Positions 4,257 through 20,745 of a DNA stretch of 64,000 nt are shown piece after piece. Source of the DNA: a virus. Within the stretch, counting starts at the first letter, position 1; each line of letters opens with the position of its first letter. The translations under genes and the position numbers were made by a program. The notes under the pieces were generated by a model. The model did no database searches. It had not been told where the DNA came from and was given only the letters and a program-made list of their open reading frames with translations. Where the stretch lies: the IMG/VR virus record IMGVR_UViG_3300010371_000028, positions 68,778 through 132,777 of that record, one strand, 5' to 3'.

Positions 4257-4323
4257 AGCCACCTGCCTCGATGAGGGTTTCCCGCGCGAGATCGTTCCGT
4301 GGATGCCGCGCGGGAAAACTAAG

Positions 4324-5636: not shown

Positions 5637-5826
5637 GACGACTCCCAGGGGACGTACCATGAGGGAAGTCGCCTTCGATCCGTCAGGCCGTCCGGGTTGG
5701 TGCCCTGGGCGGCCGTGATCGTCTAGCCCGAGTGTGAGGTTTCCGGGGCGCCCGGTCAAGCCGGGTTCGCGCTGGCGGACGCGCCGGTTGCGCCTACGGG
5801 TTGAGTTGCAGGCTCCGAACACGCGA

Positions 5827-5855
5827 AGAGCCCCGGCCGTGGAGACCGGGGCCCT
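5827..5855 (-). terminator. Intrinsic terminator-like hairpin
   Basis: AGGGCCCCGG-loop-CCGGGGCTCT on minus strand. Confidence 0.5.
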
Positions 5856-6009
5856 CGTGCTTGCGCCTATCCACCATGCCCAGCGGTCGCGTCCGCCGAC
5901 GTGTCATCACGGTACTGCGCGCCGGGCTCGCGTGAAGAGGTTCAGCGCAAGATCTAGCTGCCGTGGTCCGGGGACTCGCGGACCACGGCAGCAGGTCCAT
6001 TGCCTGCCG

Positions 6010-6378
6010 TCAGCGGAGCGAGAGGAAGTAGATCTCCCAGAGGACGTCGTACTCAGGATGATCCTTCTCCGCTTTGGCGATCTGCAGAACGGCCATGCGC
6101 GCACCCTCGAGCCACGCCTCGATTCGCGGGTCCGTAGCTCCGGTGGCATCATGCCGCATCCCGTAGAACAGTTTGTACTGTCGAACGATCTCTTCCTTGG
6201 CTGTGATATCGGCCAGGGCCCGCTCTGGGTTCCATCGCCGGATATGCCGGGCGGAGGGTTCGTCGTAGGTGTAAGCGTCCGGTTCCCAGTCTGCGGCGGC
6301 GGCTTCAGCGAGCGCTCTGGCTTCGCGTAGCCGCGCCTCGACGAACCTGATCAGTTGCGTGGACGTCGTCTCCTCCAT
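6010..6378 (-). CDS. DUF6221-like phage protein
   Basis: LIRFVEARLRE...ARHIRRWNPERALADITAKEEIV...KDHPEYD. Confidence 0.7.
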   Translation of the reverse strand: MEETTSTQLIRFVEARLREARALAEAAAADWEPDAYTYDEPSARHIRRWNPERALADITAKEEIVRQYKLFYGMRHDATGATDPRIEAWLEGARMAVLQIAKAEKDHPEYDVLWEIYFLSLR

Positions 6379-6466
6379 GCCTCAGTCTCGCACCGGGTTG
6401 ACGTCCAAGTCGGATCGGGCGCGACACTGCTGACCCTGTATCGCTACTGAGTGGCGCACAGCGCGG

Positions 6467-7117
6467 TCAGCGGGCGAAGACGAGCAGCGCGACCGTGCCG
6501 GCCATGCACAACGGCGCAAATAGCATCGTCTCCACCCGGTTCCCCGTCCGCTTCACGATCGGGAGCATGTAGTGCCCGCGGCGGGGCCACAGCAGCGGGC
6601 AACCTTCCTTGGTTAGGCAGTCGCCCACGAGATGCGCGGCTATCCCAACGCCGACGGAGAACGGAAGCCAGCCCAGGTCTTGCGGCATCGTGTACCCGAC
6701 CACCGCGGCGAGGACAAACGCGACGGTCGGGGCCAGCCCGCGGGCAAGATGCAGGGCTCGGAGCCCGAACGCGAAGAGCACGTAGATGGCCGATAGTGCG
6801 AACCAGCGGCCGAGTGTCACATCCCCAGCCCACGTGAGCAGCGGCATGAAGGCGGTGAACGCCAGCGAGTGCGTGGCATGGCGGTGACCGCCGGAGATCC
6901 GGTGCACGTACCGCGTCAGGACCCTGGTGATAGAGCCGAAAGTCCAGGCGATAGTGGCCTCCGGATGATCGGCGTCGCAAAGGAGTGCCGCGCCCGCCGT
7001 GGCGAGCAGTCCGGCCGTGATCGCGCCCCAATGCGGATGCACGCCGACCAGAGGCGCGGCGCACGCGAGCGAAGCGAACCCCATCGAACCGCTCAGGGCG
7101 TGCGTCCGGCCCATCAA
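6467..7117 (-). CDS. Metal-dependent membrane hydrolase (YdjM/LexA-binding family)
   Basis: MMGRTHALSG, DADHP, GHRHATHS, HLVGDCLTKEGCPLLWP; several TM segments. Confidence 0.85.
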   Translation of the reverse strand: MMGRTHALSGSMGFASLACAAPLVGVHPHWGAITAGLLATAGAALLCDADHPEATIAWTFGSITRVLTRYVHRISGGHRHATHSLAFTAFMPLLTWAGDVTLGRWFALSAIYVLFAFGLRALHLARGLAPTVAFVLAAVVGYTMPQDLGWLPFSVGVGIAAHLVGDCLTKEGCPLLWPRRGHYMLPIVKRTGNRVETMLFAPLCMAGTVALLVFAR

Positions 7118-7533
7118 GAGGTACCGCCAGGAGCGATAGGGCCGGTGTAGTCCGTCAGGGCGCGTATGAGGGTTTCCAGCGCGAGGTCGCGGTCCGCAGC
7201 GGCCAGACGGTGCAGTTCGTCGAGGAACATCCCGGACCCGTCACGCTCGATCATCTGCGCGATGCGCCGAGCCGTGGGGTCGAGCAGTTGCGCCCCGGCC
7301 GCGCGGCGGATCAGATCCCAGTCCACGGTCCGGTCGCGCAGCGCGATCCTGCCTTCCTGTTCGCGCCCGGCCCGGTAGAGCGCGCTGGCTTCCTCAAGTC
7401 GCATGGCGATCTGCCGCTGCACGCCCGGCACGTCCCAGGACGCGCGGCGTTCGACCGGGACCCCTCGTCGGCGCAGCAGGTATGCGGCGCCGGCTACTGC
7501 GGCGCCCACAAGCATGAATTCGCCGTTGCTCAC
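7114..7533 (-). CDS. Hypothetical protein, N-terminal TM
   Basis: GTG start; FMLVGAAVAGAAYLLRRR; coupled on both sides. Confidence 0.55.
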   Translation of the reverse strand: MSNGEFMLVGAAVAGAAYLLRRRGVPVERRASWDVPGVQRQIAMRLEEASALYRAGREQEGRIALRDRTVDWDLIRRAAGAQLLDPTARRIAQMIERDGSGMFLDELHRLAAADRDLALETLIRALTDYTGPIAPGGTS

Positions 7534-7739
7534 GCCACGCTCCGGCTCATGGCGCCGAATGCCTGTCCGGGCACGGAAACCGGGAACATCGCTGTGATCA
7601 GCGGGCCGAACTCGTCGCGTTCTTCGCGGCTCATCCCGGCGAGGATCCCGGCGGCCATGGCGATGTCGCCTTTGCTGGCGGCGTTCATGGCGATCTCGAC
7701 GCGGGCGCCGCGAGCCAGGTCGGCGTGTTCGATACTCAT
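7530..7739 (-). CDS. Hypothetical protein
   Basis: ORF with GAAGGAG RBS. Confidence 0.6.
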   Translation of the reverse strand: MSIEHADLARGARVEIAMNAASKGDIAMAAGILAGMSREERDEFGPLITAMFPVSVPGQAFGAMSRSVA

Positions 7740-7753
7740 GGGTCTCCTTCAGG

Positions 7754-9772
7754 TCAGGCGGCGCGGCCGTTGTCGGGCGCCCAGAAGCCCGGGTCGACGC
7801 CGGGCGTGGCCCACACACCGTGGGTGATCTTCACTACGTGGCCGGAGGCGCGGTCGCGCTTGAGGGCCTGGGACACGGTGGAGTTCTTGAGTCCGAGTGC
7901 GGTGACGATTTGGCCGGAGGTCACGGGTACGCCGCGGCGGGCGAGGTAGGCGCGGATCGCCTCGCGGGCGCGCTGGGTGTCGAGGGCGTCGTTGTGCCGT
8001 GCGGCAGCGGGCGAGCTGACCGGAGCCGGCACGGTGCCGGGCGCGGTGTCGCCGGCTTCCTCCGCGTCCTCCTGGGTCGCCGCAATCGCCTCCAGGTGCG
8101 CGGTGGTACCGGCGGAGGCCCAGTCGTAGACGACGTTCTCGTCTGCGCAGAACGTCCGGAACAGCGCCGGCTTGACCGCGCCGAGGATGTAGCCGAGACC
8201 GAAGGTCGGCGACTCGTCCGAGAACATCTTCGGAAGCTTGCGCGGGTCGCCGGGCAGATCCGGGAACGCCCCGGCGGTAATCGCCTCGGTGGTACGCAGG
8301 CACACGATCGACATCGCGGCAAGCAGCGGGCGGATCGTGAAGGAGTTGCCGAGTTCGGCGATCGAGGGCACCTGGGTCACCAGGCGCAGCCGGATCCCGC
8401 ACTTGCGGCCCATCTTCAAAATGAACTCGACCATCCGCTTGATCTGCTGGTCGGCCAGCAGCGCGGGCGCTTCCTCGAGCGTGATCGAGAGCAGGGGCAT
8501 CGCGGCGGTCGGGGTGAAGTAGCTCACGCCCTTGCGCTGCCTGCCCTTCGAGTCGGTCCAGATCCGCGCGGACAGTTCCTTGTTGCGCGCGAGCATCTCC
8601 CGGTAGGCGTCTTGAATGAGGGCGCGTGACTCGCCCAGGTTGCGGGCGAAGCGGTCGACCTGGTCCTGCCAGTCCGGCAGCGACTGGCCTTCCTGCGGGT
8701 CGCAGATCTGCGAGACGATCAGGTGGTTGCCGTCGGCGTCGAGGGCGTGTCGCTCGTTGATCAGGGCGTAGTCGATGTACCGGGACTTGCCGGCGCCCGA
8801 CGCGCCGCACACGATCTCATGCCAGGCGCCTGAGCCGGGCTGCCAGAACCGGATCTGGGCCGGGGACAGGTCCGCGCAGCGCCCGACGGTGGCGACGCCG
8901 GTCGTGATGTCGATGGTGGGGCCGGGGAACGGGACGAGTTCCTCGAGCGGGTTGCGGTGGAAGATCGTGAGGATGCCCTGGTCTTCGCGTTGGTTCGTGA
9001 CGGGTTCGACCTGGATGTTGAAAATGGAGGTGCCGCGGGTCGCGGCCATGCGCTTGCGGGCCGCCTCCAGGTTGTCGATGGTGTGCTTGTCGCCGTTGAG
9101 TTGGATGTGCAGGCGGGTACGGTGCGCGCTCGCGTCGACCTCCCCGAGCAGGCGCGCGCCGGTGAGGGGTCCGGATTCGGAGGCGAACTTGCCGAGGAAC
9201 CAGGCGGTCACCTCGGCGCGCTGCGCGGCGAACTCGTCGACCGGTTCGGGCTCGACCTGCGGCGACGGTAGGCGCCTGGCTCGGCGGCGCCGCACGAGGT
9301 GCCGGGCGGACCAGGTGCCGGAGGTCGCGGCGGTCACGGCGGTAAGCGCATCGAGGGCGAAGACGCTCGCCGGCCCGGTCGCGCACGCGATCACCAGCCA
9401 TGCGAGGGACAGCGCGTACGCGCCGGCGTAGTAGGCGCGGCGGGTTGCAGAGGCGGCGGCGATCCGGCTGGACTCGCTGTTCGCGCGGGCGTAGAGCACC
9501 ACCCCCGCGAGGATCACTGCGGCCCAGAGCAGCGGCCAGCCGACCACAGTGCCGTCGACCAGCCCGGCCGTCGTCTCAAGCCCGGCCGCGCCGAGCGCGG
9601 GCGCGAACTCGGCCGGGTGGTGCACTGCGGCAATCACGCCGCGCTTGGCGAGGCGGACGGCGGCGATGGCCGCGTCGTCGAGCATTTCCCCGGCCTTGTC
9701 GGTGGCGCGCTCGCTGAGCGTGGCACGCCGGGCCTTGCTGCCGGGGGGCAGGTAGCCGTCGCGGTCGGTCAT
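7754..9772 (-). CDS. traB: TraB conjugative dsDNA translocase (FtsK/SpoIIIE family)
   Basis: N-terminal TMs, Walker A GASGAGKS, Walker B LSITLEE, GRKCGIRLRLVTQ, C-terminal wHTH; GAAGGAGG RBS. Confidence 0.9.
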   Translation of the reverse strand: MTDRDGYLPPGSKARRATLSERATDKAGEMLDDAAIAAVRLAKRGVIAAVHHPAEFAPALGAAGLETTAGLVDGTVVGWPLLWAAVILAGVVLYARANSESSRIAAASATRRAYYAGAYALSLAWLVIACATGPASVFALDALTAVTAATSGTWSARHLVRRRRARRLPSPQVEPEPVDEFAAQRAEVTAWFLGKFASESGPLTGARLLGEVDASAHRTRLHIQLNGDKHTIDNLEAARKRMAATRGTSIFNIQVEPVTNQREDQGILTIFHRNPLEELVPFPGPTIDITTGVATVGRCADLSPAQIRFWQPGSGAWHEIVCGASGAGKSRYIDYALINERHALDADGNHLIVSQICDPQEGQSLPDWQDQVDRFARNLGESRALIQDAYREMLARNKELSARIWTDSKGRQRKGVSYFTPTAAMPLLSITLEEAPALLADQQIKRMVEFILKMGRKCGIRLRLVTQVPSIAELGNSFTIRPLLAAMSIVCLRTTEAITAGAFPDLPGDPRKLPKMFSDESPTFGLGYILGAVKPALFRTFCADENVVYDWASAGTTAHLEAIAATQEDAEEAGDTAPGTVPAPVSSPAAARHNDALDTQRAREAIRAYLARRGVPVTSGQIVTALGLKNSTVSQALKRDRASGHVVKITHGVWATPGVDPGFWAPDNGRAA

Positions 9773-9804
9773 CGCCGCCTCCTTCTCTTCTCGTCGTGAA
9801 CGGG

Positions 9805-10953
9805 TCAGTCGCCGGCGGGAAGCGCGCCGACGGTGACGGTGGGCAGTGCCATGTTCTGGGTGCTGGCGACGCCGTAGAACTGGCCGTCGGCACCGCCGTG
9901 GCCGGTGGCCATCGCGGCCTCGGCATGCGGCATCTGGTGGGTGTTGACGGTGTCGAGCGCGGCGACGGCGGCCTCGTGGTAGCCGGACGCTGCGGTGGAC
10001 ATGTTCGCGGCGATCGCGGCGAGGTCCTGGCATCCGGCGGCGAACGCGTTCGCGAGTTCCTGGTACGCGCCGCCGGCTTCGTGGAGCCGGTGGTATGCAG
10101 CGGAGGTTTCCGCGTCCACGTTCAGGACCGCCATGGTGGCGATCGCCATCTCGACGGCGCCGGTCTCGTCCTCGATGCGCCGGGCGGTCTCGCCGGCGAA
10201 TTCGGCGGCGGCGATCGTGGAGGCGGAGGCGGCGAGGGCGTCCTCGGATTCCATTCCGGCGAATGCGGCGGCCTGGCCGGTGAACCCGACGAGGGATTCG
10301 AGGTCGGTGATGTCGGCGGACGGCATCGGGGGGTACTCCTTCAGCGGGGGAACGAGGGTGAGGTGGCGCGGGCCCGGCGTGGGCGCGCCGTCGAGGTCGT
10401 GGTCGAGAGGTTCGGCGACGGCGTAGGTGTCGTCACCCGGGTCATCGGTGTCGTCGACGAGTTCGGCGTCGGTCCAGTCGATGACCCCGGACTCGGGTCC
10501 GGAGCTGGGCGGGGCCGTGGCGGTCGGCCGGTCCGGACTCGGGCCCGGTTCCGGGGCTGTGGCGCGCGGAGTCGGCTCGACGGCGTCCGGGCCGGTCATG
10601 TCCGGGCGGCTGCGAGCGGTACGGCGCGTATACGCCAGGCCGGCGCTGCGCCCTCCGGCGCGCCCGGCCCGGTAGACGCGCACGCCGCTGACCCAGCCGG
10701 CGACTGACGCGGCGGTGCCGTCACGACGCGCAGCCCTGGCGCGGCGTACGGCCCGGCGCCCCAACCTGTGGCCGCGGGCGAACGGGGCGCTGCCGTCGGC
10801 CCCGGTCAAGTCCGTGTCCGGCGATCCCGGGCCGGGTGTTGCCGTGGCGGGCGCGGGGTGGGCGGGGCGCAGGCTGGCGCGGACGCCGGAGAACGCACCC
10901 GCGCCCAGCGTGACCATGTAGTAGCCGAAGATGGCGTCGAAAAGATCCGGCAT
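9805..10953 (-). CDS. TraA-like accessory transfer protein
   Basis: Directly upstream of traB; Pro/Asp linker plus Ala-rich helical C-domain. Confidence 0.5.
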   Translation of the reverse strand: MPDLFDAIFGYYMVTLGAGAFSGVRASLRPAHPAPATATPGPGSPDTDLTGADGSAPFARGHRLGRRAVRRARAARRDGTAASVAGWVSGVRVYRAGRAGGRSAGLAYTRRTARSRPDMTGPDAVEPTPRATAPEPGPSPDRPTATAPPSSGPESGVIDWTDAELVDDTDDPGDDTYAVAEPLDHDLDGAPTPGPRHLTLVPPLKEYPPMPSADITDLESLVGFTGQAAAFAGMESEDALAASASTIAAAEFAGETARRIEDETGAVEMAIATMAVLNVDAETSAAYHRLHEAGGAYQELANAFAAGCQDLAAIAANMSTAASGYHEAAVAALDTVNTHQMPHAEAAMATGHGGADGQFYGVASTQNMALPTVTVGALPAGD

Positions 10954-10962
10954 CGTCTCCCC

Positions 10963-11544
10963 CTACACCAGGTGTTGGACGAGCGGGACGATGTGGCTGG
11001 CCATGCCCGCGTACACCCAGGAGGCGCCCTCGCCGAAGTAGCCCGGCACGAGGGTGAAAACCATCGGGCCGAGGAACATCAGCACGTCCGCGCCGCCCTG
11101 GTGGGCCTTGCCCTCGAGGACGTCGCCGAGCAGGTGCAGGCCCTTGTGCAGCGCGATCAGCGCGATGAGCGCGACGCCGACGTTCGTGACGTCCTGGCCG
11201 ATCACGGGCAGGTGCCGGGTGCCGGCCTCGATCAGGCGCGAGACCCACAGCACGAACGAGCCGATGAACGTGCCGGACGCGGCGACCCCGGCAACGCCGA
11301 ACAGCAGGAACGAGCACCAGGCCAGGGCGGTGCGGACGTGCCGGAGGGTCTTGACGGCGCCGCCGGAGCGCTGCACGAGGCTGCGGCGCTCGATCGACGC
11401 GGTGATGCTGGGGGTGCGGCGGCGCAGGAACAGGGCGAAGATCAGGCACAGGACGGTCACCCCGAGCAGGGACATGCTCGCCTGCGTGCGGGTGAGCGCG
11501 GACTGGGCGAGGGGGGCCGCCGCGGTGACGGCGATGTGGTTCAT
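10963..11544 (-). CDS. Multi-TM membrane protein (Spd-like)
   Basis: About four hydrophobic helices; GAAGGAG RBS. Confidence 0.6.
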   Translation of the reverse strand: MNHIAVTAAAPLAQSALTRTQASMSLLGVTVLCLIFALFLRRRTPSITASIERRSLVQRSGGAVKTLRHVRTALAWCSFLLFGVAGVAASGTFIGSFVLWVSRLIEAGTRHLPVIGQDVTNVGVALIALIALHKGLHLLGDVLEGKAHQGGADVLMFLGPMVFTLVPGYFGEGASWVYAGMASHIVPLVQHLV

Positions 11545-11569
11545 GGGGGCTCCTTCGGGGGTTTGAATT

Positions 11570-12064
11570 TCACTGGTTGGTCGGGCTGGTTTTCTGCTGT
11601 TCTTGCAGGTCGCAGGCGTGACTGTCCTGCAGGGTGCCGTGAATTTCACGCGTGAAATCGGGCGCGCCGGCCTTGCGTCCGGGGCACTGGCGGCGGTCTA
11701 GGAGGGCCACGAGCGCGCCGGCCGCGGCGATGGTGGCCGGCGCGCCCTCGATGGCTCGGATCCGGTCGAGGTGCGCCATGAACAGGGCGTGCAGGCGCCT
11801 CTCGGACCGAGCCGCGGCAACCGCTTTGCCACGGAGGTCAGGGGAACTGATCGTGGCCGTCACGGTCGGCGTCCCTTCCAGCCGTGTCGTGTCGGCGTGG
11901 CGGGTGACTGGCGCGACGGCGACGGGGTGACGCCACGGGTCCGGCGACACGTGCCACCGGCCGACGACACGACTCGCGGTTCTGACACGCCTCGGCATTG
12001 CGCCGGGGGTGTCGCGTGCCACGTGCCGCAGGTGGCGTGTCCGGGTGCCCGTGTCGTTCGTCAT
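11570..12064 (-). CDS. Hypothetical protein (start may be GTG 11863)
   Basis: ATGA overlap with upstream stop; alternative start with GGAAGGG RBS. Confidence 0.4.
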   Translation of the reverse strand: MTNDTGTRTRHLRHVARDTPGAMPRRVRTASRVVGRWHVSPDPWRHPVAVAPVTRHADTTRLEGTPTVTATISSPDLRGKAVAAARSERRLHALFMAHLDRIRAIEGAPATIAAAGALVALLDRRQCPGRKAGAPDFTREIHGTLQDSHACDLQEQQKTSPTNQ

Positions 12065-12621
12065 GCGACACGCTCCTTGTCGGTCGTGTCGTCGCCACCC
12101 GTGGCGCTCGCGGCGTTCTGCCGGTCGCGGCTGCGGGTCTTGCGTACGAGAACGTCGTCGACCTTCACGCCGACGACCCCGAGCGCTTTGACGATCTGGG
12201 AGGCGGCGCGGCCGGGCAGGAGCTGGTCTGCGTTGCGGATCGCGTCGGCCTTCGACATCTCCGGCCATGCGCTCACTGTCTCGGTCAGCTGTGCCACATC
12301 GGCGTCGAGGTTCTGCATGGGCAGGTTCGACACGACACGTGCCGGACGGGGACGTGTCGCCACGGTGGGCTTGGGTGTGGCGGCCGGCGGGACCGTGGCA
12401 CGGGCAGGCGTGTCCGTGTCGTCGGTTGTGTCGTTGCCGCGTGTCGTGTCGGCGGGAGCCACCGTGTCGGGTGTCGTGTCGCCGGCCGTGGCAGTGGCGC
12501 AGGGCGCCGTGGCGTGGCGCGTGTCGGTCGGCGTGCCGCCGTGTCGGGGTGTCGCCGTGTCGGCCACGCGTGCCATCCAGGGCGATGGGGTGTCGAGGGT
12601 CGCGAGATCCGATGCGTGTCG
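11884..12621. repeat. Dense array of GTGTCG/CGACAC hexamers (24 copies counted)
   Basis: 19 forward and 5 reverse copies counted by eye in about 740 bp, spanning two ORFs. Confidence 0.85.
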
Positions 12622-13416
12622 GACGGCTGCGATCTCTTGGATCAGCCGGTCGGTGCGAACCCTGTCGTGCGCTGCGCCCGAGACGCGCACGGCGGCGCGC
12701 AGCTTCCGGTTGACGCGCCGGCGCCGCTTGCCGGCGAGGAGCCAGCCGTTGATCGACGCGAGCCGGTCGGCCAGTTCTACGGCGTCGTCGAAGGCGTTGT
12801 TCTGCTGGATCTCCAGCGCGGTCTGGTCGGCCGCGGTGACGCCGAGCGCGGCGAGGAACCGCTGCTGCGCACTCTGCTTGATCTTGGCAAAAACACCGTC
12901 GGCGTCCTTGCCTTCGGCGGCGCGGCGGGCGCGCCGCTCGGGGACCATGCTGCGTTCCCACAGCCACGCGGCCACGAGCGGCGCGCCGAGGCGCACGAGG
13001 GCTTCCTGCGGAGAGGTGGCCTCGGTCGCCGACATGAACCCTGAGGCGCATGTGAGGACCCAGACGGCGAGCCCGTCGGCGCCGGCGTGGCCTTCGCGGG
13101 CGACGGCTGCGCGGGCACGGAGCGCGGATGCGAGCACCGCGATCTCCATGAACGCGAACAGGACGGCTTGGATCCAGACCGGCAGGTGCATGGTGCGGGT
13201 GAAGAAGTGCCACATGCCGGTCGCGGCGACGGAGGAGGCCATGGCGGCGGCCACGACGGTGAGGGTGTCGGCGGCCTTCTTCCCGCGCAGGGAGCGGGTG
13301 GCACGCCAGGCGAGGATCGCGGCTGCGATCACAGCGGCGCCCGACGCGGTAGCGAGCACCGGTACGGGGACCGAGTGGACGAGGTCGCCGAGCCGTTCGG
13401 TGGGTGTTGCGGTCAT
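12061..13416 (-). CDS. SpdB2-like / DUF2637-like spread protein
   Basis: N-terminal TM helices, Thr/Asp/Ala repeat linker, C-terminal HTH-like segment; GAAGGAGG RBS. Confidence 0.7.
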   Translation of the reverse strand: MTATPTERLGDLVHSVPVPVLATASGAAVIAAAILAWRATRSLRGKKAADTLTVVAAAMASSVAATGMWHFFTRTMHLPVWIQAVLFAFMEIAVLASALRARAAVAREGHAGADGLAVWVLTCASGFMSATEATSPQEALVRLGAPLVAAWLWERSMVPERRARRAAEGKDADGVFAKIKQSAQQRFLAALGVTAADQTALEIQQNNAFDDAVELADRLASINGWLLAGKRRRRVNRKLRAAVRVSGAAHDRVRTDRLIQEIAAVRHASDLATLDTPSPWMARVADTATPRHGGTPTDTRHATAPCATATAGDTTPDTVAPADTTRGNDTTDDTDTPARATVPPAATPKPTVATRPRPARVVSNLPMQNLDADVAQLTETVSAWPEMSKADAIRNADQLLPGRAASQIVKALGVVGVKVDDVLVRKTRSRDRQNAASATGGDDTTDKERVA

Positions 13417-13505
13417 GGGTCTCGCCTCCTTCAGTTGGCGTCGGGCGTATCAGGGCTCAGTGTATAACCCGTCATACGTCTTTCGGGGGTGGATATGATC
13501 CGGGC

Positions 13506-13856
13506 GTGGAGCGTGAGGAGATTGAGCGCGCCGCGGAGGCGCTACTCGCCGTCTCCCGCGCCGATGAGCGGGAGCGCGCGGAGTTCGTACGGGCTTTGAA
13601 GCAACGCGCCGAGGCGATCGCAGATGACCGTGAGCGTCTCGATAAGACTCATTCGCTGGTTCGGTTGATGTTGGACGCGATCCCGGCGCTCTCGATGGTG
13701 CGTCATCTCGCGCTGGATCGTCTGCGTGCGCAGGCGGAGGCCGAGGGGGATCCGGAGCGCTGGTCGCACGGAGTGGTGGCGAAGCGATTTGGGATCACGC
13801 GGGCGAGCGCGCAGACGATCGCGAAAGGGCCGCGCGGAAAGGCTCCCAAGGGTTAG
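13506..13856 (+). CDS. Small regulator with C-terminal HTH, divergent from spdB-like gene
   Basis: WSHGVVAKRFGITRASAQTIAK. Confidence 0.65.
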   Translation: MEREEIERAAEALLAVSRADERERAEFVRALKQRAEAIADDRERLDKTHSLVRLMLDAIPALSMVRHLALDRLRAQAEAEGDPERWSHGVVAKRFGITRASAQTIAKGPRGKAPKG

Positions 13857-13972
13857 AGCATCACGCGGGACTGTGATTGCGAGCATCGTGTTCGCCTCCT
13901 CGGCGTGGTCGTGGTCGGTCGTTTGGTCGGTGGCGTCGTGGCTTGCCTTGCGGTGCGCTTCGGCGGGTCGGG

Positions 13973-14143
13973 TCAGAGGCGGAAGCTGGCGCCGTTGCGG
14001 CTCTTACGTCGCCGCCCGGTCTTGGTGCGTCCGGTGAGCGGGATCGCTTTCCAGGCGCGGAATCGGCCGGCGCGTTCGGCGATGTCGAGGTCGACGCCGC
14101 GGCCGGGGCGCCAGTTGAGGCTGATTCTGGGGAGCGGGCTCAT
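13973..14143 (-). CDS. Small basic hypothetical protein (56 aa)
   Basis: MSPLPRISLNWRPGRGVDLDIAERAG..., read from sequence. Confidence 0.45.
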   Translation of the reverse strand: MSPLPRISLNWRPGRGVDLDIAERAGRFRAWKAIPLTGRTKTGRRRKSRNGASFRL

Positions 14144-14144
14144 G

Positions 14145-14288
14145 TCAGCGCCGCCGGCCGTTGTCGCGGGCGGTGGGCATGTCGCTGTCGTTCTCGGCGG
14201 GTGCCGGGGCGGCCTCGACCTCGATCCAGCCTTCGATGTTGTCGCTGTCGGTGGGTGTCTCGGCCGGGGCGGTGGTGTCGGTGGTCAT
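14145..14288 (-). CDS. Small hypothetical protein (47 aa)
   Basis: AGGAGA RBS; GC3-rich. Confidence 0.45.
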   Translation of the reverse strand: MTTDTTAPAETPTDSDNIEGWIEVEAAPAPAENDSDMPTARDNGRRR

Positions 14289-14313
14289 GCGGGTCTCCTG
14301 TCGGCGTGGGTGG

Positions 14314-14562
14314 TTAGGCGTGCGGTCGCAGGTTGGTCGGCGCCCGGTTCTCGCGGATTTCGGCGATCCGGTCGGCGACGGCTTCGAGGAGGTCGGCGTA
14401 GTCGCTGCTGTCGAGCGTGATGGACTCGGGCCAGACCTCGATGTGGGTGCCGACGCGGTCGACGTCGGCGATGGTGGCGTGGGTGCCTTCCTGCGCGATG
14501 ACGCGGCGGGCGAGGTCGGTGACGAGCGCCGGGTCGGGCCGGTGCGGGCTGCGAGTCGGCAT
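14314..14562 (-). CDS. Hypothetical protein
   Basis: ATG 2 nt after upstream stop. Confidence 0.5.
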   Translation of the reverse strand: MPTRSPHRPDPALVTDLARRVIAQEGTHATIADVDRVGTHIEVWPESITLDSSDYADLLEAVADRIAEIRENRAPTNLRPHA

Positions 14563-14564
14563 GG

Positions 14565-14765
14565 CTACTCGGTCCACTGGCGCACGTTGAAGTGGGCGCC
14601 CTCGTCGAGCAGCCCGGCGATGTGCTTGACGGCGAGCATCTCCTCGCCGTCGCGGAAGTGCTTGGGCTCGCCCTTCGGGGTGCCGATGTTCTCGGCGGTG
14701 TCGGGCTGTTCCCAGTCGTACTCGCTGGCGTCGCCGTCGAACTCGGTGATGATGATGCGTGCCAC
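14565..14765 (-). CDS. Hypothetical protein
   Basis: GGAGA RBS; ORF track. Confidence 0.6.
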   Translation of the reverse strand: MARIIITEFDGDASEYDWEQPDTAENIGTPKGEPKHFRDGEEMLAVKHIAGLLDEGAHFNVRQWTE

Positions 14766-14774
14766 GGGGGTCTC

Positions 14775-14975
14775 CTAGAGGCTCGGGAAGGACGGGATGT
14801 CGCCGTTTGTGGCGCGGGCGGACGCCTCGTATTGGGCGCCGATCGTGCAACGGGAGTCGCTGTTGTCGCCTCCGCACTCTCTGCAGGACGCGTCGTGCTT
14901 GGCGAGGGCGAGGCTGGCGTACTCGCCGGCGGTCAGGTCGAACGAGACGCGCGGCGGCGGGATCACGTCGCGCAT
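14775..14975 (-). CDS. Small hypothetical protein with Cys/His
   Basis: TGATG coupling; H-x2-SCREC...RC. Confidence 0.55.
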   Translation of the reverse strand: MRDVIPPPRVSFDLTAGEYASLALAKHDASCRECGGDNSDSRCTIGAQYEASARATNGDIPSFPSL

Positions 14976-15412
14976 CAGCGGTCTCCGATCGGGAAGCGGG
15001 CGGTGACGCGCTTGTGCCCGGAGTCGCGGCGTACCGCGAGGACGGCGCCCATCGCGGCGATGATGGCCAGGCCCCGGCCGGACTCGGTCTCGAGGTCGAA
15101 CGCGAGCGCCGGGTCGGGGCGCGGGATCAGCTGCTCGGGGTGGGAGTCGGTGACGGAGACGATGAGCGCGGTCGCGGTCAACGTGAGGGTGAACCGGTCT
15201 GCGCCGCCGGCGTGCCGCAGGGCGTTGGTGGCGAGTTCGGACGCGGCGAGGATCGCGGCTTCGGCGATGGACGCGGGGGCGTGTTGCCGGACGAGGTCGC
15301 GGGCTTCGCCGGGTGCGGCGGGCGCGGCGATGGAGTAGCGGTGGCTGGCGGGCTGTACGGAGCCGCCTGCAATTGCCGATGGCGTTTGCACGAAGGGCAC
15401 GAACATCAGCAT
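14975..15412 (-). CDS. ATP-binding protein (HATPase_c, RsbW/anti-sigma-like)
   Basis: SELATNALRH, VTD, ESGRGL. Confidence 0.85.
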   Translation of the reverse strand: MLMFVPFVQTPSAIAGGSVQPASHRYSIAAPAAPGEARDLVRQHAPASIAEAAILAASELATNALRHAGGADRFTLTLTATALIVSVTDSHPEQLIPRPDPALAFDLETESGRGLAIIAAMGAVLAVRRDSGHKRVTARFPIGDR

Positions 15413-15717
15413 GAACCGCCTTCGCGCATCGCGGTACCGGTCTTGGGCGCGGCGCCCCTGCGGCCCTCGATGACCTCGACTTTGTCGGCGGGAACGAGTC
15501 CGACGGTGGCGGGCTGCTGGGTGGCGGCGTCGAACCGGACGGGGATCGCGCCCGAGTATTCGACGGTGCCGTGCCCGTACGGGGTGCGGACGCGGGTGCC
15601 GGCGGGGATGGGCTGGGCTTCGAGGCGGGCGTATTCGAGGACGAGGGCGCGGCGGGTGGTCCGGTCGGTGTTCTCGGACAGGATCTTCGTGAGGATCGTG
15701 GACTGGCGCGCGTTCAC
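15406..15717 (-). CDS. Hypothetical protein (KOW/SH3-like C-half)
   Basis: IPAGTRVRTPYGHGTVE; GTGA coupling. Confidence 0.55.
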   Translation of the reverse strand: MNARQSTILTKILSENTDRTTRRALVLEYARLEAQPIPAGTRVRTPYGHGTVEYSGAIPVRFDAATQQPATVGLVPADKVEVIEGRRGAAPKTGTAMREGGSC

Positions 15718-15986
15718 GGCCGGTGCCCGTCGGTCTCGGGACGCAGGATCGCGATGCGGGCGTCGGCGACGATCGACCAGGGGCGGGTGTCGCCGGGGTC
15801 GTCGATCGGCGCGACGATCAGGTTGGCGATGGAGGCGTGGTGCTCGTTCTCGACCAGGACGGGCGCCGCGACCGCGCACCAGGTGCCGGAGAGCGCGACG
15901 ATGTCGCCGATGCGGAGGCGGGCGGCCTTCGCCTGGGTCATGTGCAGGCCGGCGAGGGTCGGCGCGGGCACGGTCAGGGTGGTCAT
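15714..15986 (-). CDS. Hypothetical protein
   Basis: ATGA coupling; AARLRIGDIV. Confidence 0.55.
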   Translation of the reverse strand: MTTLTVPAPTLAGLHMTQAKAARLRIGDIVALSGTWCAVAAPVLVENEHHASIANLIVAPIDDPGDTRPWSIVADARIAILRPETDGHRP

Positions 15987-16327
15987 CGTGCCGCTCCCGT
16001 CTCGTTCGGGACGAGCCACAGGCCGGCGCCGCCGTGCAGGATCACCTGGTCGTACTCGGGCAGCGGCACCGACTGGTACACCTCGACGCGCAGGCCGTCG
16101 ATCACGGCCTCGGTCGACCAGGTGCCCATCCACACGCCCGCCTGGATCTCGTGCGGGGCGTGCTCCTCGACCTCGGCGTGCAGGGCGTTCGCCCAGGCGC
16201 GGATGTCGGCCGGGTTGTTCCCGGCGAGCGTGAACGCGACGGTCGCGGGGGCTGTCGGTCCGTAGGCCGGGGTGAGCGTTACGGACAGGACCGGCGGGAG
16301 GCCCGCGATGTCCAGGTCGCGGATCAT
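15983..16327 (-). CDS. Hypothetical protein
   Basis: ATGA coupling. Confidence 0.6.
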   Translation of the reverse strand: MIRDLDIAGLPPVLSVTLTPAYGPTAPATVAFTLAGNNPADIRAWANALHAEVEEHAPHEIQAGVWMGTWSTEAVIDGLRVEVYQSVPLPEYDQVILHGGAGLWLVPNETGAAR

Positions 16328-16551
16328 GCGGTCACCGGCTCTCCGGCGTTCGCCCGGGTCGCGGTGACGGCGCGCACGATGTTCGGCAGTGCCGCCGTGA
16401 GCCCGAGCTCGATGTGCGCAAGGAGCAGCGCCAGGTAGTAGCCGGGGTCGGCGGCGGCGTTCTGGATCCGCCGGATCACGCGCTCGGCGTGCTCGTACTC
16501 GGCGTCGGACGGGACGCGCGCGGCGGCCTCGGCCTGGTCTACGCTGGACAT
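16324..16551 (-). CDS. Hypothetical protein
   Basis: GAAGGAG RBS. Confidence 0.6.
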   Translation of the reverse strand: MSSVDQAEAAARVPSDAEYEHAERVIRRIQNAAADPGYYLALLLAHIELGLTAALPNIVRAVTATRANAGEPVTA

Positions 16552-16625
16552 GTTCGCTCCTTCTGCTGCTCGCTAGAGGTTCGGACCCCGCCCGGTCGCT
16601 GTTGCTGCAGCGTCCGGGCTTTTAC

Positions 16626-16684
16626 GTGCCCTGCCGGGAATCGAACCCGGGCCCCGACGCCTCCGGAGCGACTGGGTGCGGGCC
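16626..16684 (-). ncRNA. tRNA T-arm-like element in structured intergenic leader
   Basis: CCGGG-TTCGATT-CCCGG followed by CAGGGCAC; acceptor pairing only about 4 bp. Confidence 0.4.
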
Positions 16685-16809
16685 AGACTGATCCCGCAGC
16701 CGCATGGAGTGCGTTCGCGACGTTCGCCAGAACGAGGGCTTGCTGGTGGTGCTGGTTGGTGCCGGGCCCCGTCCGTGGACGGTCGCGCACGGGGCCCGGC
16801 GGTCTGTGG

Positions 16810-17058
16810 TTACGCGGCGGCCGGGACGACCAGGCGACTGCGGATGTACGGGGCGTAGGAGGAGTGGGGAATGCGGTAGCCGCGCCGCGTGCCGATGCGA
16901 ATGACGCCCTGGATCTCGCCATTCGCGATGGCGGCGTAGATGGTTGCCGGCTCGACGCGGACCTTCGCCGCGAACTCGCCGACCGTGTAGAAGCCGTCCG
17001 TGTCGGACGGCCCTAGTGCCGTGTTCTCTGCGAGGTCCATGACTTCAGTCTGGGCCAC
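16810..17058 (-). CDS. Excisionase-like HTH protein (HTH_17 type)
   Basis: FYTVGEFAAKVRVEPATIYAAIANGEI...IRIG...YRIP. Confidence 0.8.
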   Translation of the reverse strand: MAQTEVMDLAENTALGPSDTDGFYTVGEFAAKVRVEPATIYAAIANGEIQGVIRIGTRRGYRIPHSSYAPYIRSRLVVPAAA

Positions 17059-17068
17059 ATCTTTTACT

Positions 17069-17093
17069 ATGTCAAGCTACCTCTTATAGTAGG
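17069..17093 (-). promoter_or_regulatory. -35 TTGACA and adjacent operator-like box CCTCTTATAGTAGG upstream of xis-like gene
   Basis: tgtcaa on + strand at about 17070-17075; box at 17080-17093 resembles those upstream of gntR. Confidence 0.5.
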
Positions 17094-17113
17094 CTGTAGC
17101 TCATGGAAACAGA

Positions 17114-17139
17114 AGAGCCCCGGCCGTAGCCGGGGCTCT
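17114..17139 (-). terminator. Terminator of gntR transcript
   Basis: Perfect 11-bp stem AGAGCCCCGGC/GCCGGGGCTCT followed by TCTGTTT on minus strand. Confidence 0.7.
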
Positions 17140-17156
17140 GGGATCAACCGCGCAGG

Positions 17157-17882
17157 TTAGGAGGTGAATGACCATTGCATGACGTACGCCTCCCCGAGCA
17201 ACACCATGTCGTTGACCTCGACGACACGCCCTTCGGCGGTCGCAGCCGTACGCCGGATCGCCGCAACGGGCTGACCCACGTCGAGATGCAGCAGTTTGCG
17301 CTCGCCAGGCCGCGGCATCCGCACGCGCACCTGCTCAACGAACTTCACCGGCTCATGGCCGAGGTCACGAAGCCGTGCGTACGTCCCACCCGGTCCGGAG
17401 TCTGGCCGCTCAATCGGGCTTCCCGCAACCAAATCGGCCGGAAGGTAGGAGATCGCACTCTGGACGCGACGCCCTTCCACCGCGTAGACACGCTCGCGGG
17501 TCAGGACACGCCTCACGCCGAGGAGAGCCTCGATCTCGGGTGGCGCGTCAATGGTCGAGACCTCAATCGACTCCACCGACATGGGGCGCAAACCCAGGTC
17601 GGCCGACCAGATGGCATGGCCGGCACCCCACTGCTCCGCAGACAGGCGTGTCGTTGCGTCCCGCAGTATCGGCTTGAAGTCGCGCACGAATGCTCCCTTG
17701 CCTCGCTCGATCCGAATGAGGCCCTCGCCGCGCAGGAGGTTCAACGCGGCGCGTGCCGTCGGTTGCGAGTACCCGAACTCACTCACCAGGGCGTTCTCGC
17801 CCGGGACCTGGGCGCCGGGTGCGAGTTCGCCGCTCTCGATCTTCGCGCGCAGGGCTGCCGCAATCTCATCGCGCTTCGACAT
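17157..17882 (-). CDS. GntR-family (HutC/UTRA) repressor, KorSA/TraR-like
   Basis: wHTH PGENALVSEFGYSQPTARAALNLLRGEGLI..RGKGAFV plus UTRA domain; heads the tra module. Confidence 0.9.
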   Translation of the reverse strand: MSKRDEIAAALRAKIESGELAPGAQVPGENALVSEFGYSQPTARAALNLLRGEGLIRIERGKGAFVRDFKPILRDATTRLSAEQWGAGHAIWSADLGLRPMSVESIEVSTIDAPPEIEALLGVRRVLTRERVYAVEGRRVQSAISYLPADLVAGSPIERPDSGPGGTYARLRDLGHEPVKFVEQVRVRMPRPGERKLLHLDVGQPVAAIRRTAATAEGRVVEVNDMVLLGEAYVMQWSFTS

Positions 17883-17936
17883 GCCCGAGTCGCTGGTGTC
17901 CTTCGCCACGGCTCTCCTCTTGCTGTTTCGCGCCTT

Positions 17937-17971
17937 CCTCTTGTAAGAGGTGGCGAACTTCTTGCTAGAGG
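17937..17971. promoter_or_regulatory. Two operator-like 14-bp boxes upstream of gntR
   Basis: CCTCTTGTAAGAGG (17937-17950, palindromic arms) and CTTCTTGCTAGAGG (17958-17971). Confidence 0.55.
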
Positions 17972-18059
17972 TTATCCCCGAACGGCGCCGTACGGCATCT
18001 TCGGGCGTCCCTTGCTGCGGCAATCGGACGTCTGGAGGACGTTGCTGGGCTCGCGAGAT

Positions 18060-18421: not shown

Positions 18422-19429
18422 GTGCCCGTGATCGAGGTGCGGCGTATGCCGCGCAACACCACGGCCGGGTTCGAGCGGATCCCCAACCGGGCGATTCGCA
18501 GCGTGGAGTTGTCGCTCTCCGCCGTCGGACTGCTCGCGCGGCTGCTGGCCGACGGGGAGCAGTACGACTCCATCGACGACATTGCCGCGGCCTACAACCC
18601 TGCCGCGCCCGGTCAGAAAACTCCGTACGGCTTTGGCCGAGACGTCTACCGGAAGGCCGCCCTCGAGCTCGAGGCCGCCGGCTACCTGGTTCGCACCGAG
18701 GAAAAGGGCGCTGGTAACCGCACGCGGTCGCTGGCCAGGGCGATTCCTGAAAAGACGCAGATCGGAGCCGCGACGGACAGTCCGTCGCGGGAACGACGTG
18801 GGCAAACGGGTATCGGCGCAGATCAGGCCCGGGACGGACAGTCCGTCGCGGGGATGACCTGGGAAAACGAGGCATACGAGCACGTCGAGCCCAGGACGGA
18901 CAGTCCGTCCCGGCGCTCACCTGCGGAAACGACCCTTCCTGCACGTCAGTCCCGCGACGGACAGTCCGTCGCGGACTATATACAGACCTCTTTTCAGACC
19001 TCAGACCTCCTCCTCCACAGCGGCGACCAGGACAGCAACGTTCAGATCGGCAAGGAACAGGAGGAGGTGGACGGCGGTGCGTTCCAACCTCACCCCGACG
19101 CGCTCGCCGTCATCGCCGCCGTCGACCTCGGCGGCAAGCCGCTCGTCCCGAAGTCCCGCGATGAAGCCGAACTCACCCTGACGGCAAAGCTCGCCGAGGG
19201 CTGGACCGTGGCCGCCCTGACGCACGCCTTCGAGGGCTGCACCGAAGGCGCCAGAAACCCGCCCGGCGCGTTCATGAGCCGCGTACGCGGACTTGGACCG
19301 CCCCCGCGCCCCGCAACCACCCGCGCTTCGCCGCGATGCCCCGAATGCAACGGCAGCGGCCTAATCGAAAACGACCTCGGCGACCCCGCCCCCTGCCCCA
19401 CCTGCAAAACACCAAGGAGCAACCCGTGA
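18422..19429 (+). CDS. Replication initiator (N-terminal wHTH, C-terminal Zn finger), lambda-O-like
   Basis: FERIPN..LSLSAVGLL..YRKAALELEAAGYLVR; CPEC/CPTC; internal iterons; coupled to dnaB. Confidence 0.8.
   Translation: MPVIEVRRMPRNTTAGFERIPNRAIRSVELSLSAVGLLARLLADGEQYDSIDDIAAAYNPAAPGQKTPYGFGRDVYRKAALELEAAGYLVRTEEKGAGNRTRSLARAIPEKTQIGAATDSPSRERRGQTGIGADQARDGQSVAGMTWENEAYEHVEPRTDSPSRRSPAETTLPARQSRDGQSVADYIQTSFQTSDLLLHSGDQDSNVQIGKEQEEVDGGAFQPHPDALAVIAAVDLGGKPLVPKSRDEAELTLTAKLAEGWTVAALTHAFEGCTEGARNPPGAFMSRVRGLGPPPRPATTRASPRCPECNGSGLIENDLGDPAPCPTCKTPRSNP
18769..18974. repeat. Four palindromic iterons, putative replication origin
   Basis: GACGGAC-A-GTCCGTC at 18772, 18833, 18895, 18956 (61/62/61 bp period). 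Confidence 0.85.
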
Positions 19430-20745
19430 ACGACCGCACTCCCCCGCACGACGAACACGCCGAGATGGCCGTTCTCGGCGGCATGCTCATGTCCCGCACC
19501 GCGATCGAGGAAGTCACCGGGATGCTCGCCGCATCCTCGTTCTACCTGCCCAAGCACGAACACGTCTACGACGCGATCACCGCCGTCGAGTCCCGGGACG
19601 AACCCGTGGACGCCGTCACCGTCGCCGCGGAACTCACCCGCCGCGGCGAACTCGCCAAGATCGGCGGGCCCGTCTACCTGCACGACCTCATGGGGTCCGT
19701 CCCCACCGCGGCCAATGCCGGCTACTACGCCGAGATCGTCCGCGAGCACGCCGTACGCCGACGCCTCATCGAGATCGGCACCCGGTACGTCCAGATGGGC
19801 TACGACACCACCGACCACGCCGACATCCCCGAAATGATCGACCGGGCGCAGGCCATGGCCATGACACTCGAGCACATCGACTACGAAGAAGAAGACCTCC
19901 TCCTCGCTGACGCCTACGTCGAAGTCCTCGAATCCGTCGAACACGGCACCTCGCAAGGACTGCCCACCGGGCTGCGCGACTTCGACGCGTTGACCGGCGG
20001 ACTGCACCCGGGACAACTCATCGTCGTCGCAGCCCGCCCCGCCCTCGGCAAATCGGTCCTCGCCGAGAACTGGGTGCGCCACACCGCGATCGCCACCGGC
20101 CGCCCGGCCGCGATGTTCTCCCTCGAGATGTCCCGCTTCGAAGTCGCCAAGCGCGCCATCGCCGCCGAAGCCGCCGTCCCCCTCCACCACCTCGCCCACG
20201 GGCGCATGGAGGAATCCGACTGGGACCGGGTCAAGCAGCGCACCCACACCATCCCCGCCGCGCCCCTGTACGTGGACGAGAACCCCACCCTCACGATCAC
20301 CTCGATCCGCTCCAAGGCGCGCCGGCTGCGCCGCAAGCACGGCATCGAACTCCTCGCCGTCGACTACCTCCAACTCATGGAGGGCGAGGCCAAGCGGCGC
20401 GGTGGCGAGAACCGGCAGCAGGACGTCTCCGCGATCTCCCGCGGCCTGAAGCTGCTCGCCAAGGAACTGCAGATCCCCGTCATTGCCGTCGCGCAGCTCA
20501 ACCGGGGGCCCGAGTCCCGAGCGGACAAGAAGCCCGCCATGAGCGACCTGCGCGAATCCGGCTCCATCGAGCAGGACGCGGACACCGTCGTCCTGATCCA
20601 CCGGGAAGACGCCTACGAGAAGGAAGGACCGCGAGCAGGCGAAGCAGACCTCATCGTTGCCAAACACCGAGGCGGCCCGACCGCAACGCTGACCGTCGCG
20701 TTCCAGGGGCACTACGCCAGATTCAAGGACATGGGGCGCGGCTGA
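19426..20745 (+). CDS. dnaB: Replicative DNA helicase DnaB
   Basis: AARPALGKS, FSLEM, VDYLQLM, AQLNRGPE, SDLRESGSIEQDAD, AKHRGGPT. Confidence 0.97.
   Translation: MNDRTPPHDEHAEMAVLGGMLMSRTAIEEVTGMLAASSFYLPKHEHVYDAITAVESRDEPVDAVTVAAELTRRGELAKIGGPVYLHDLMGSVPTAANAGYYAEIVREHAVRRRLIEIGTRYVQMGYDTTDHADIPEMIDRAQAMAMTLEHIDYEEEDLLLADAYVEVLESVEHGTSQGLPTGLRDFDALTGGLHPGQLIVVAARPALGKSVLAENWVRHTAIATGRPAAMFSLEMSRFEVAKRAIAAEAAVPLHHLAHGRMEESDWDRVKQRTHTIPAAPLYVDENPTLTITSIRSKARRLRRKHGIELLAVDYLQLMEGEAKRRGGENRQQDVSAISRGLKLLAKELQIPVIAVAQLNRGPESRADKKPAMSDLRESGSIEQDADTVVLIHREDAYEKEGPRAGEADLIVAKHRGGPTATLTVAFQGHYARFKDMGRG

Follow-up and report, generated by a model that had tools for sequence, protein, structure and literature searches.

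A TraB-like translocase and putative spread genes in the genome of a temperate siphovirus-type actinomycete phage

The DNA analysed here raises the question of why a tailed phage should carry genes of the kind found in the transfer regions of Streptomyces plasmids, and whether they may serve it for spread outside the virion. The window, a stretch of 64,000 nucleotides to which all positions below refer unless they are marked as genome positions, is the right half (68778–132777) of the single 132,777-bp virus record IMGVR_UViG_3300010371_000028 of IMG/VR, here called G000. A preliminary description made from the sequence alone placed TraB, TraA-like, Spd-like and KorSA-like GntR genes next to an iteron-containing initiator/DnaB pair and proposed a conjugation and spread module embedded in a phage-like genome, possibly a conjugative phage-plasmid. 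The embedding is borne out by the terminase, portal, tape-measure and endolysin genes found on the same contig. The region from 6.4 to 20.7 kb is best read as a complete backbone of the type known from Streptomyces plasmids and from the integrative and conjugative elements of actinomycetes (AICEs), and it is a stable part of a temperate siphovirus-type genome. With this tra/spread module lying in a true tailed phage beside an iteron/DnaB replicon, transmission by two routes suggests itself naturally. It is considered probable here, with some reserve, that the phage, besides spreading in virions, passes on its double-stranded genome by cell contact through TraB and Spd-like proteins, under the control of the GntR regulator.

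The TraB-like translocase

The traB gene of the block (Table 1) encodes a protein in which the motifs GASGAGKS (Walker A), CDPQ, LEE, RKCGI and TQVPS are invariant across 20 aligned TraB homologues. We take these motifs to be the counterparts of the Walker A, IDPK, Walker B, RAAGI and TQRPS motifs of FtsK. The sole NCBIfam match to the protein is plasmid_TraB (E 3.8e-11), and the PHROGs database gives a weak FtsK/SpoIIIE-like match. A phmmer search against the sequences of the Protein Data Bank (PDB) returned none at E ≤ 1. The AlphaFold2 model of the protein has a mean predicted local distance difference test (pLDDT) score of 76, rising to 80–95 in the motor domain, and its best PDB matches in Foldseek are FtsK motor domains (E 1.6e-14; TM-score by target 0.63–0.67), followed by TcpA, an FtsK-like conjugative coupling protein. 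FtsK/SpoIIIE and TcpA of pCW3 are thus the best structural matches for residues ~180–560, and Walker A, Walker B and TQxPS motifs are common to all of them, whereas the N-terminal anchor and the C-terminal DNA-binding domain of TraB differ. The N-terminus is predicted to contain two to three transmembrane (TM) helices, which hydropathy places within residues 71–138. The C-terminus is modelled as a winged helix of the order helix-helix-helix-strand-strand, composed of helices at 588–642 and two strands (pLDDT ~87), and the protein is weakly matched by Pfam MarR_2. The gene was therefore correctly recognised in the preliminary description, and its product is a diverged TraB-like member of the FtsK superfamily that is not an equivalog of plasmid TraB.

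The same fold could serve in counter-defence, exclusion or another FtsK-like function that does not involve DNA transfer, such as that of a HerA/FtsK-type defence ATPase, and HerA-type defence ATPases do appear among the weaker fold matches of TraB. However, FtsK and TcpA rank first among the fold matches, the surrounding genes are of tra/spd type, and PADLOC gave no match among the proteins of the block except a marginal Csa3 on the GntR regulator, so that such a role is very improbable.

Homologues of TraB were found by tblastn on 141 actinomycete plasmids, 125 of them from Streptomyces, at identities of at most 37%, and the closest homologues from cultured organisms belong to Streptomyces, Kitasatospora and Actinacidiphila (identity ≤41%). 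The same search against 50,697 GenBank phage records returned no match, and megablast of the tra block found none among GenBank phages and PLSDB plasmids. No similarity to the best plasmid match was seen for any block protein except TraB.

The phage genome and its relatives

G000 is the genome of a temperate tailed phage of siphovirus type, ~133 kb long, whose host is probably a soil actinomycete. In its left half every listed gene is on the minus strand, and both the virion genes and a tyrosine integrase are encoded there, which answers what the preliminary description had left to the flanks. The integrase, at genome 26.6–28.0 kb, lies ~50 kb away from the tra block, past the structural genes, and the TraB gene is 10.6 kb from the terminase. 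The block itself encodes neither an integrase nor a rolling-circle replication (RCR) Rep, as had been stated. Searches of G000 for ParA and ParB with AAA_31, CbiA and ParB_N, the parAB genes being another feature to be looked for in the flanks, gave no match.

A single-protein search of IMG/VR with TraB returned nothing; an alignment-driven scan returned ten records. A protein search identified a tight TraB group at 48–79% identity, several members of which are encoded on 128–129-kb contigs. Two independent IMG/VR records among the ten, G001 (111 kb, CheckV completeness 100%) and G002 (127 kb, 97%), are collinear with G000 over most of its length. Both keep the order SpdB-like gene with repeat field, 4–5-TM protein, 382-aa protein, TraB, YdjM-like protein, 333-aa protein and terminase, with the terminase 11–12 kb from TraB, and their TraB proteins are 57% (G001) and 50% (G002) identical to that of G000. 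The order of GntR followed by HTH_17 is also kept in G001, where the two proteins are 48% and 45% identical, respectively. A 130,535-bp contig from another metagenome contains a locus that matches the 22-kb TraB locus of G002 with 100% identity, its coordinates being shifted by 46.8 kb. Either one circular genome was assembled in two permuted forms, or both sequences are overlapping parts of a larger region.

The record of G000 is classed as 'linear' in IMG/VR with a CheckV completeness estimate of 89%. Its ends form a 120-bp direct repeat, rather than an exact overlap, with 105 of 120 positions identical (87.5%), at genome positions 1–120 and 132658–132777 (window 63881–64000). This repeat spans the N-terminus of a small gene (MPRPVP...), and may reflect either a tandem pair of paralogues or differences between strains where a circular assembly closes. 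G001 runs unbroken over the point at which G000 ends and restarts (genome positions 132139 and 313 of G000 correspond to 94850 and 94288 of G001), and G000 is thus all but complete as a genome, in circularly permuted form. On the shared collinear circular map, the ends of G000, G001 and G002 occupy three different points and none of them adjoins the integrase. This scatter of the record ends is compatible with non-integrated DNA, although a plasmid state is not thereby demonstrated.

The occurrence of the same junctions, on the left and on the right of the block, in two independent metagenome records excludes misassembly and a one-off insertion, both of which the preliminary description had kept in view. 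The rightward and leftward arms do converge near 48.45 kb as described, but no support was obtained for reading the central 42 kb as a unit that was inserted or inverted, as the relative orientation of the arms is unchanged in G001 and G002. A nested AICE or an assembly chimera, in which the block would be inserted or mis-joined and would excise independently, is extremely improbable. An exact 16-nt direct repeat (5825–5840 and 17112–17127) brackets the operon from HTH_17 to YdjM and would suit such a unit. Both copies, however, are arms of similar terminator-like hairpins, and the repeat was rejected as an attachment (att) site on this ground; apart from this pair, no clear att-like repeats were found at the block, and none at the ends of G001, G002 and the further relative G003. 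There is also no integrase in or beside the block, and the GC content (65–73% across the window) is uniform, with no compositional shift at the tra block.

In a maximum-likelihood tree of 49 TraB-like sequences, the proteins of G000, G001 and G002 group with 16 metagenomic proteins in one clade (Shimodaira–Hasegawa-like approximate likelihood ratio test 100, stem 0.68). This clade stands apart from chromosomal, plasmid and pZL12-type copies and has diverged to 48% identity; the genomic context is known for three of its 19 members, all three being phage. The pattern apparently reflects a long association with phage.

The region divergent from GntR encodes a Prim-Pol and a DUF3987 protein in G001 and an AAA_25 helicase and a NUDIX protein in G002. 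The replication cassette has thus been exchanged among the relatives and the transfer genes have been retained. In Streptomyces monomycini, GntR (44% identical), the SpdB-like protein (33%) and TraB (36%) are encoded in the same order, with the SpdB-like gene between the other two and no phage genes nearby. The block could in principle be a passenger relic, an AICE or plasmid fragment that was captured by an ancestral phage and is of no benefit to it. Phage genomes are mosaic, the replication module adjoining the block differs in each relative and several block genes are without a homologue in the relatives, all of which would fit such an origin. Against it, TraB, the 382-aa protein, the 4–5-TM protein and the YdjM-like protein are intact and syntenic even though the TraB proteins are only 50–57% identical, none of the motor motifs varies among the 20 aligned sequences, a repeat field is kept at the equivalent place in every relative, and capsid-limited genomes tend to shed useless DNA. 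A relic is on these grounds quite unlikely.

The repeat field, the replicon and the remaining genes

The strongest local k-mer cluster in the whole 133-kb genome is formed by the heptamer CGACACG and its complement CGTGTCG, 19 of whose 84 copies lie in a field 2.1 kb upstream of traB (Table 1). The count over the entire window is ordinary (47 observed versus 35 ± 6 expected), the signal being one of clustering. Both strands and all three codon phases hold copies, some of which lie beyond the 451-aa open reading frame (ORF), and this indicates a motif at the DNA level. Fields in or beside the SpdB-like gene upstream of traB are also found at the syntenic position in the relatives, composed of 14 copies of GACACCC in G002, 11 copies of CGAGCGC (16 of GAGCGC) in G001 and 12 copies of CGGACCG in G003, and because these fields have different motifs, the CGACACG field is a candidate for a clt-like cis site. 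Precedents are provided by the clt loci, which contain 8-bp repeats that are bound by the cognate TraB (PMC4447253), and by sps sites, which lie inside spdA genes and are visible there as peptide motifs (PMC4447253, PMC4170104). A plasmid of Streptomyces sp. NBC_00841 contains eight copies of AGCCGAG (locus positions ~7397–8200) inside a DUF2637 gene (locus positions 6504–8234) upstream of its TraB homologue, and repeat fields within SpdB/DUF2637-type genes may be general in this class of transfer region.

Two possible indications of the protein that binds the repeats were considered and set aside. Co-variation of the TraB recognition helix with the repeat motif was rejected, the helix being nearly constant and the motifs different. 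The C-terminal domain of the SpdB-like protein is similar in G000 and G002, both of which have a GACAC core in their repeats, and different in G001; this co-occurrence was rejected as independent evidence because the repeats are inside that gene and travel with it. Apart from this field, an exact 18-nt direct repeat, CGCGCCCGGCCCGGTAGA, occurs at 7362–7379 and 10659–10676 in two different coding regions.

To the right of the block, the iteron-containing initiator/DnaB pair is present as described, with four iterons of core GACGGACAGTCCGTC inside the 335-aa ORF and DnaB directly after it. The sole match of the initiator candidate is phrog_1456 'DNA binding protein' (E 4e-6); it has no Pfam family, and in particular none to Phage_rep_O. 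In the lambda O/P-type origin, iterons also lie inside the initiator ORF and a helicase-type gene follows directly downstream. This replicon differs from lambda O/P in the missing Phage_rep_O match and in encoding its own DnaB rather than a loader for the host helicase, and it may work by analogy with lambda O/P without being a member of that group. G000 contains a second, separate replication module at genome positions 5171–7940, composed of a phrog_2149 protein, a 125-aa protein and DnaB copy 2 (genome 5171–6502), which is 50% identical to copy 1. The single DnaB of G001 is 34% identical to both DnaB proteins of G000.

The features of the window and the genes identified in the left half of G000 are listed in Table 1; genes were called with a GC3/GC1>GC2 filter.

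Table 1. Features of the tra block and adjoining replicon, in window positions, and genes of the left half of G000
Feature	Position	Strand	Remarks
DNA-binding protein, 333 aa	4821..5822	-	phrog_1568 'DNA binding protein' E 1.2e-19; 79% identical in G001, 70% in G002
GC-rich hairpin closing the tra operon on its downstream side	5827..5853	-	exact 16-nt arm in common with hairpin 17114–17139
YdjM-like membrane metal-dependent hydrolase	6467..7117	-	Pfam YdjM E 2.8e-20; 3 TM; 83% in G001, 62% in G002
Two small genes (131 aa and 69 aa) of no assigned function, directly downstream of traB	7114..7739	-	69-aa protein 76% identical in G001
TraB-like FtsK-family double-stranded DNA translocase, 672 aa from the MTDRDG start	7754..9772	-	N-terminal TM helices, motor domain, C-terminal winged helix
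382-aa protein without family match, directly upstream of traB	9805..10953	-	43% in G001 (tblastn), 43% in G002
193-aa polytopic membrane protein, Spd-like by architecture and position	10963..11544	-	4–5 TM; 68% in G001, 46% in G002
164-aa ORF, uncertain gene, overlapping the downstream part of the repeat field	11570..12064	-	no homologue in relatives
Repeat field, 19 copies of CGACACG/CGTGTCG on both strands	11883..12621 (739 bp)		candidate clt-like or SpdB-bound site
SpdB-like protein, 451 aa	12061..13416	-	N-terminal TM domain (≥2 TM), T/D/P-rich linker, C-terminal helical (helix-turn-helix-like) domain
HATPase_c_2 (anti-sigma-factor-like) regulator, 145 aa	14975..15412	-	Pfam E 5.5e-10; phrog_12354 'transcriptional regulator'
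HTH_17 (excisionase/MerR-type) protein, 82 aa, first gene of the leftward tra operon	16810..17058	-	Pfam HTH_17 E 6.9e-6
Strong terminator-like hairpin directly after the GntR gene	17114..17139	-	11-bp stem
GntR/UTRA (HutC-type) regulator	17157..17882	-	Pfam GntR E 1.7e-18, UTRA E 5.2e-21; phrog_10724 E 4.8e-45
DNA-binding initiator candidate, 335 aa	18422..19429	+	origin iterons inside the ORF
Four 34-nt iterons	18757..18974		61–62-bp spacing
DnaB replicative helicase, copy 1	19426..20745	+	Pfam DnaB_C E 9.2e-95
Large terminase	left half of G000	-	Terminase_6N/6C
Portal fused to 2H phosphoesterase	left half of G000	-	
Tape-measure protein, 1320 aa	left half of G000	-	
Minor tail protein	left half of G000	-	
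GH25 endolysin	left half of G000	-	with peptidoglycan-binding domains
Tyrosine integrase, 472 aa	left half of G000, end of late operon	-	phrog_1 E 6.7e-49
N6/N4 methylase	left half of G000	-	
Second replication module	left half of G000	-	phrog_2149 'replication initiation protein' (E 5.9e-32) and DnaB copy 2

The GntR ORF spans 17157–18023 on the minus strand, with the ATG at 17882 as its probable start codon; this position coincides with the right-hand limit first drawn for the block. The gene product is a regulator with GntR and UTRA domains, in agreement with the KorSA-like gene that had been reported, and by its family and position it appears to be TraR/KorSA-like. The 82-aa HTH_17 protein scores 26.7 bits in Pfam, slightly below the 27-bit cut-off, and also matches phrog_66 'excisionase and transcriptional regulator' (E 1e-4). 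Several small genes follow it leftward, among them that of the HATPase_c_2 regulator.

The genes for the 451-, 164-, 193- and 382-aa membrane and small proteins are all co-oriented with traB, with a stop-start overlap at 12061/12064. The Spd-like genes of the preliminary description are present insofar as the 193-aa and 451-aa proteins are TM proteins encoded upstream of traB; the search for Spd families in Pfam was negative, with no DUF2637 match at E ≤ 1, and PF10935 was found in one of 52 homologues. The linker-coding DNA of the 451-aa gene holds the repeat field, and the N-terminal domain of an Actinospica robiniae protein is 90% identical to that of the SpdB-like protein. In G003, a 153-aa 4-TM protein is encoded at the position of the 193-aa protein. 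A distinct TraA-like gene could not be confirmed, the neighbour of traB being the 382-aa protein, for which no family match was obtained. Downstream of traB, the YdjM-like gene is its conserved partner, and on the way from the tra block to the packaging genes the gene for the 333-aa protein is the first that is conserved. A late-regulator region had been proposed here, and of that proposal the position stands: the 333-aa PHROG 'DNA binding protein' is encoded between the block and the terminase. An Rfam search was negative.

Elsewhere in the window, ARAGORN predicts tRNA-Gly(ccc) at 4323–4394 (minus strand) and tRNA-Gly(gcc) at 54663–54740, and Rfam gave no tRNA in the window at the gathering score. 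A C-5 cytosine DNA methylase (59555–60979, minus strand, E 3e-31) is 57% identical to a gene product of pSAM1, an identity that far exceeds that of the rest of both genomes. The early arm encodes a Thg1-like tRNA-His guanylyltransferase (27723–28523, plus strand; Pfam Thg1 E 1e-19 and Thg1C), which is unusual for such a region of a phage, and a DUF4429 and SHOCT protein (25244–26014, minus strand) on the opposite strand inside the rightward arm. Two small genes (21669–22275, minus strand) exhibit 97% and 92% protein identity to G001, the remaining shared genome being ~35–87% identical, and look like a recent mosaic exchange.

Known systems and the proposed route of spread

Tailed phages that carry a tra gene of Streptomyces type are a kind of element already known from pZL12, and G000 is a separate lineage with its own TraB clade. 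The plasmid-phages pZL12, pSLE1 and pSAM1 (~86–99 kb) carry virion genes and a Streptomyces-type FtsK-like tra gene on one replicon, as does G000, and in both the tra gene is on the upstream side of the packaging genes. A terminase related to that of G000 is encoded on 35 Streptomyces plasmids, several of which, among the matches listed, measure ~88–99 kb. In the three pZL12-like plasmids examined, a TraB-family gene, ParA (AAA_31) and a tyrosine recombinase were each found in all three; the TraB-family gene is 1.3–3 kb from the terminase in pSAM1 and a Streptomyces janthinus plasmid (1.3 kb in pSAM1). Transfer of pZL12 requires the major tra gene and two of its neighbours (PMC3583192), and ParA/ParB are carried by elements of this type (PMC4487206). 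In contrast, G000 is a 133-kb genome with two replication modules, a late operon that ends in a tyrosine integrase gene and no ParA/ParB match. Its TraB is 28% identical to that of the pZL12 type and its terminase 39% over 184 aa, and ~9 proteins are common to G000 and pSAM1.

The AICEs pSAM2, SLP1 and pMEA300 and the conjugative plasmids pSVH1 and pIJ101 provide the second comparison. They feature a GntR repressor, an Xis-like helix-turn-helix protein, a replication module, spd membrane proteins and TraB, a double-stranded DNA pump with a winged helix-turn-helix, and have short repeats clustered in the transfer region; G000 is organised likewise. The AICE set of tyrosine integrase, GntR, initiator with DnaB and TraB is all present on G000. 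Prim-Pol proteins define one AICE replication type and Nudix (Pif) proteins are typical of AICEs (PMC3218068, PMC2440964), and these hallmarks recur in the relatives as the Prim-Pol of G001 and the Nudix protein of G002. AICEs differ in being ~9–24 kb in size, in having no virion genes and in carrying the integrase adjacent to rep/xis, whereas G000 measures 132.8 kb, encodes virion genes and has its integrase far from the block. Its replication protein belongs to none of the types RepSA, RepAM and Prim-Pol, and its TraB is below the family cut-offs. The phage-plasmid label first proposed finds no support, since G000 encodes a tyrosine integrase and no ParA (AAA_31) match was obtained in G001 or G002 any more than in G000. 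Because of this difference from the pZL12-like plasmids, all three of which have ParA, the architecture appears closer to that of a temperate phage to which an AICE backbone has been fused.

In Streptomyces plasmids, TraB alone is sufficient for the transfer of double-stranded DNA, and spd operons drive spreading (PMC4447253). For the phage, leftward of a divergent control region, the GntR (TraR/KorSA-like) repressor would be expressed on its own transcript and the rest of the leftward genes as one operon. Once the GntR repressor is relieved, the circular phage genome would replicate from the iteron origin. The cis repeats may then serve as the loading site for membrane-anchored TraB hexamers, which would drive the genome, double-stranded and unprocessed, into the adjoining hypha, and the Spd-like membrane proteins would take it across septal cross-walls. 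A mycelium might thus be colonised without lysis, and virions would serve to reach unconnected hosts. The tyrosine integrase would give chromosomal lysogeny in place of ParAB partition.

The same proteins might instead form a segregation device, in which TraB, the repeats and the SpdB-like protein distribute an episome along the hyphae and pump it into spore compartments, by analogy with FtsK/SpoIIIE or with the SpdA2/sps stability function of pIJ101. The lack of a ParA/ParB match in G000 and of ParA in G001 and G002 is in line with such a function. SpdA2/sps alters segregational stability and not transfer (PMC4170104), and the repeat field is located, like sps, inside the gene of a putative DNA-binding membrane protein. 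However, the integrase of G000 already settles inheritance, the full GntR-spd-traB layout is that of transfer regions, and the nearest TraB homologues outside the clade are situated in plasmid and AICE tra regions, which makes segregation an unlikely primary role, though the strongest of the alternatives.

Several observations weigh against contact-dependent spread as set out above. TraB scores 42 bits against plasmid_TraB, for which the equivalog cut-off is 800, and Pfam FtsK_SpoIIIE (PF01580) fails to match it even at E ≤ 1. What supports the Spd assignments is architecture, together with weak ESM-Atlas leads to DUF2637/SpdB (0.85–0.92). A Nudix/Pif gene was not matched in G000 (PF00293), and the CheckV estimate and the 'linear' class leave room for ParAB in a missing part. 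The record is derived from a metagenome, and the mycelial habit of the host is deduced from relatives alone. The repeats lie in a low-complexity linker, so that they may partly originate at the peptide level. The recognition helix of TraB is near-identical in G000, G001 and G002 although their repeat motifs differ, so that TraB may not be what binds the repeats; the SpdB-like C-terminal domain, or some other protein, may do so instead.

It is possible, and proposed here only tentatively, that these 111–133-kb temperate actinomycete siphophages, a deep-branching lineage, are integrase-bearing, ParAB-less 'conjugative phages' with an old AICE-type backbone and a TraB clade of their own, which would spread free of virions and lysis through and between mycelia and be invisible to Pfam and CONJscan. 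The TraB of G000 is missed by the Pfam model used for finding AICEs and Streptomyces conjugation, and such elements are therefore under-counted. Reviews of plasmid mobility present conjugation and virion transfer as alternative routes (PMC12282955). To our knowledge, pZL12 is essentially the only studied case of an element that encodes both. The phages described here add a second lineage, unrelated to the first and apparently old, in which a TraB/Spd module is conserved, and their lineage-specific repeat fields provide a concrete candidate for the cis site and its binding protein. Since at least six of the ten IMG/VR records with a TraB-like gene also hold a tape-measure and/or Terminase_6C match, the dual-route strategy may be a recurrent one, and transmission by both routes may recur among the phages of mycelial bacteria.

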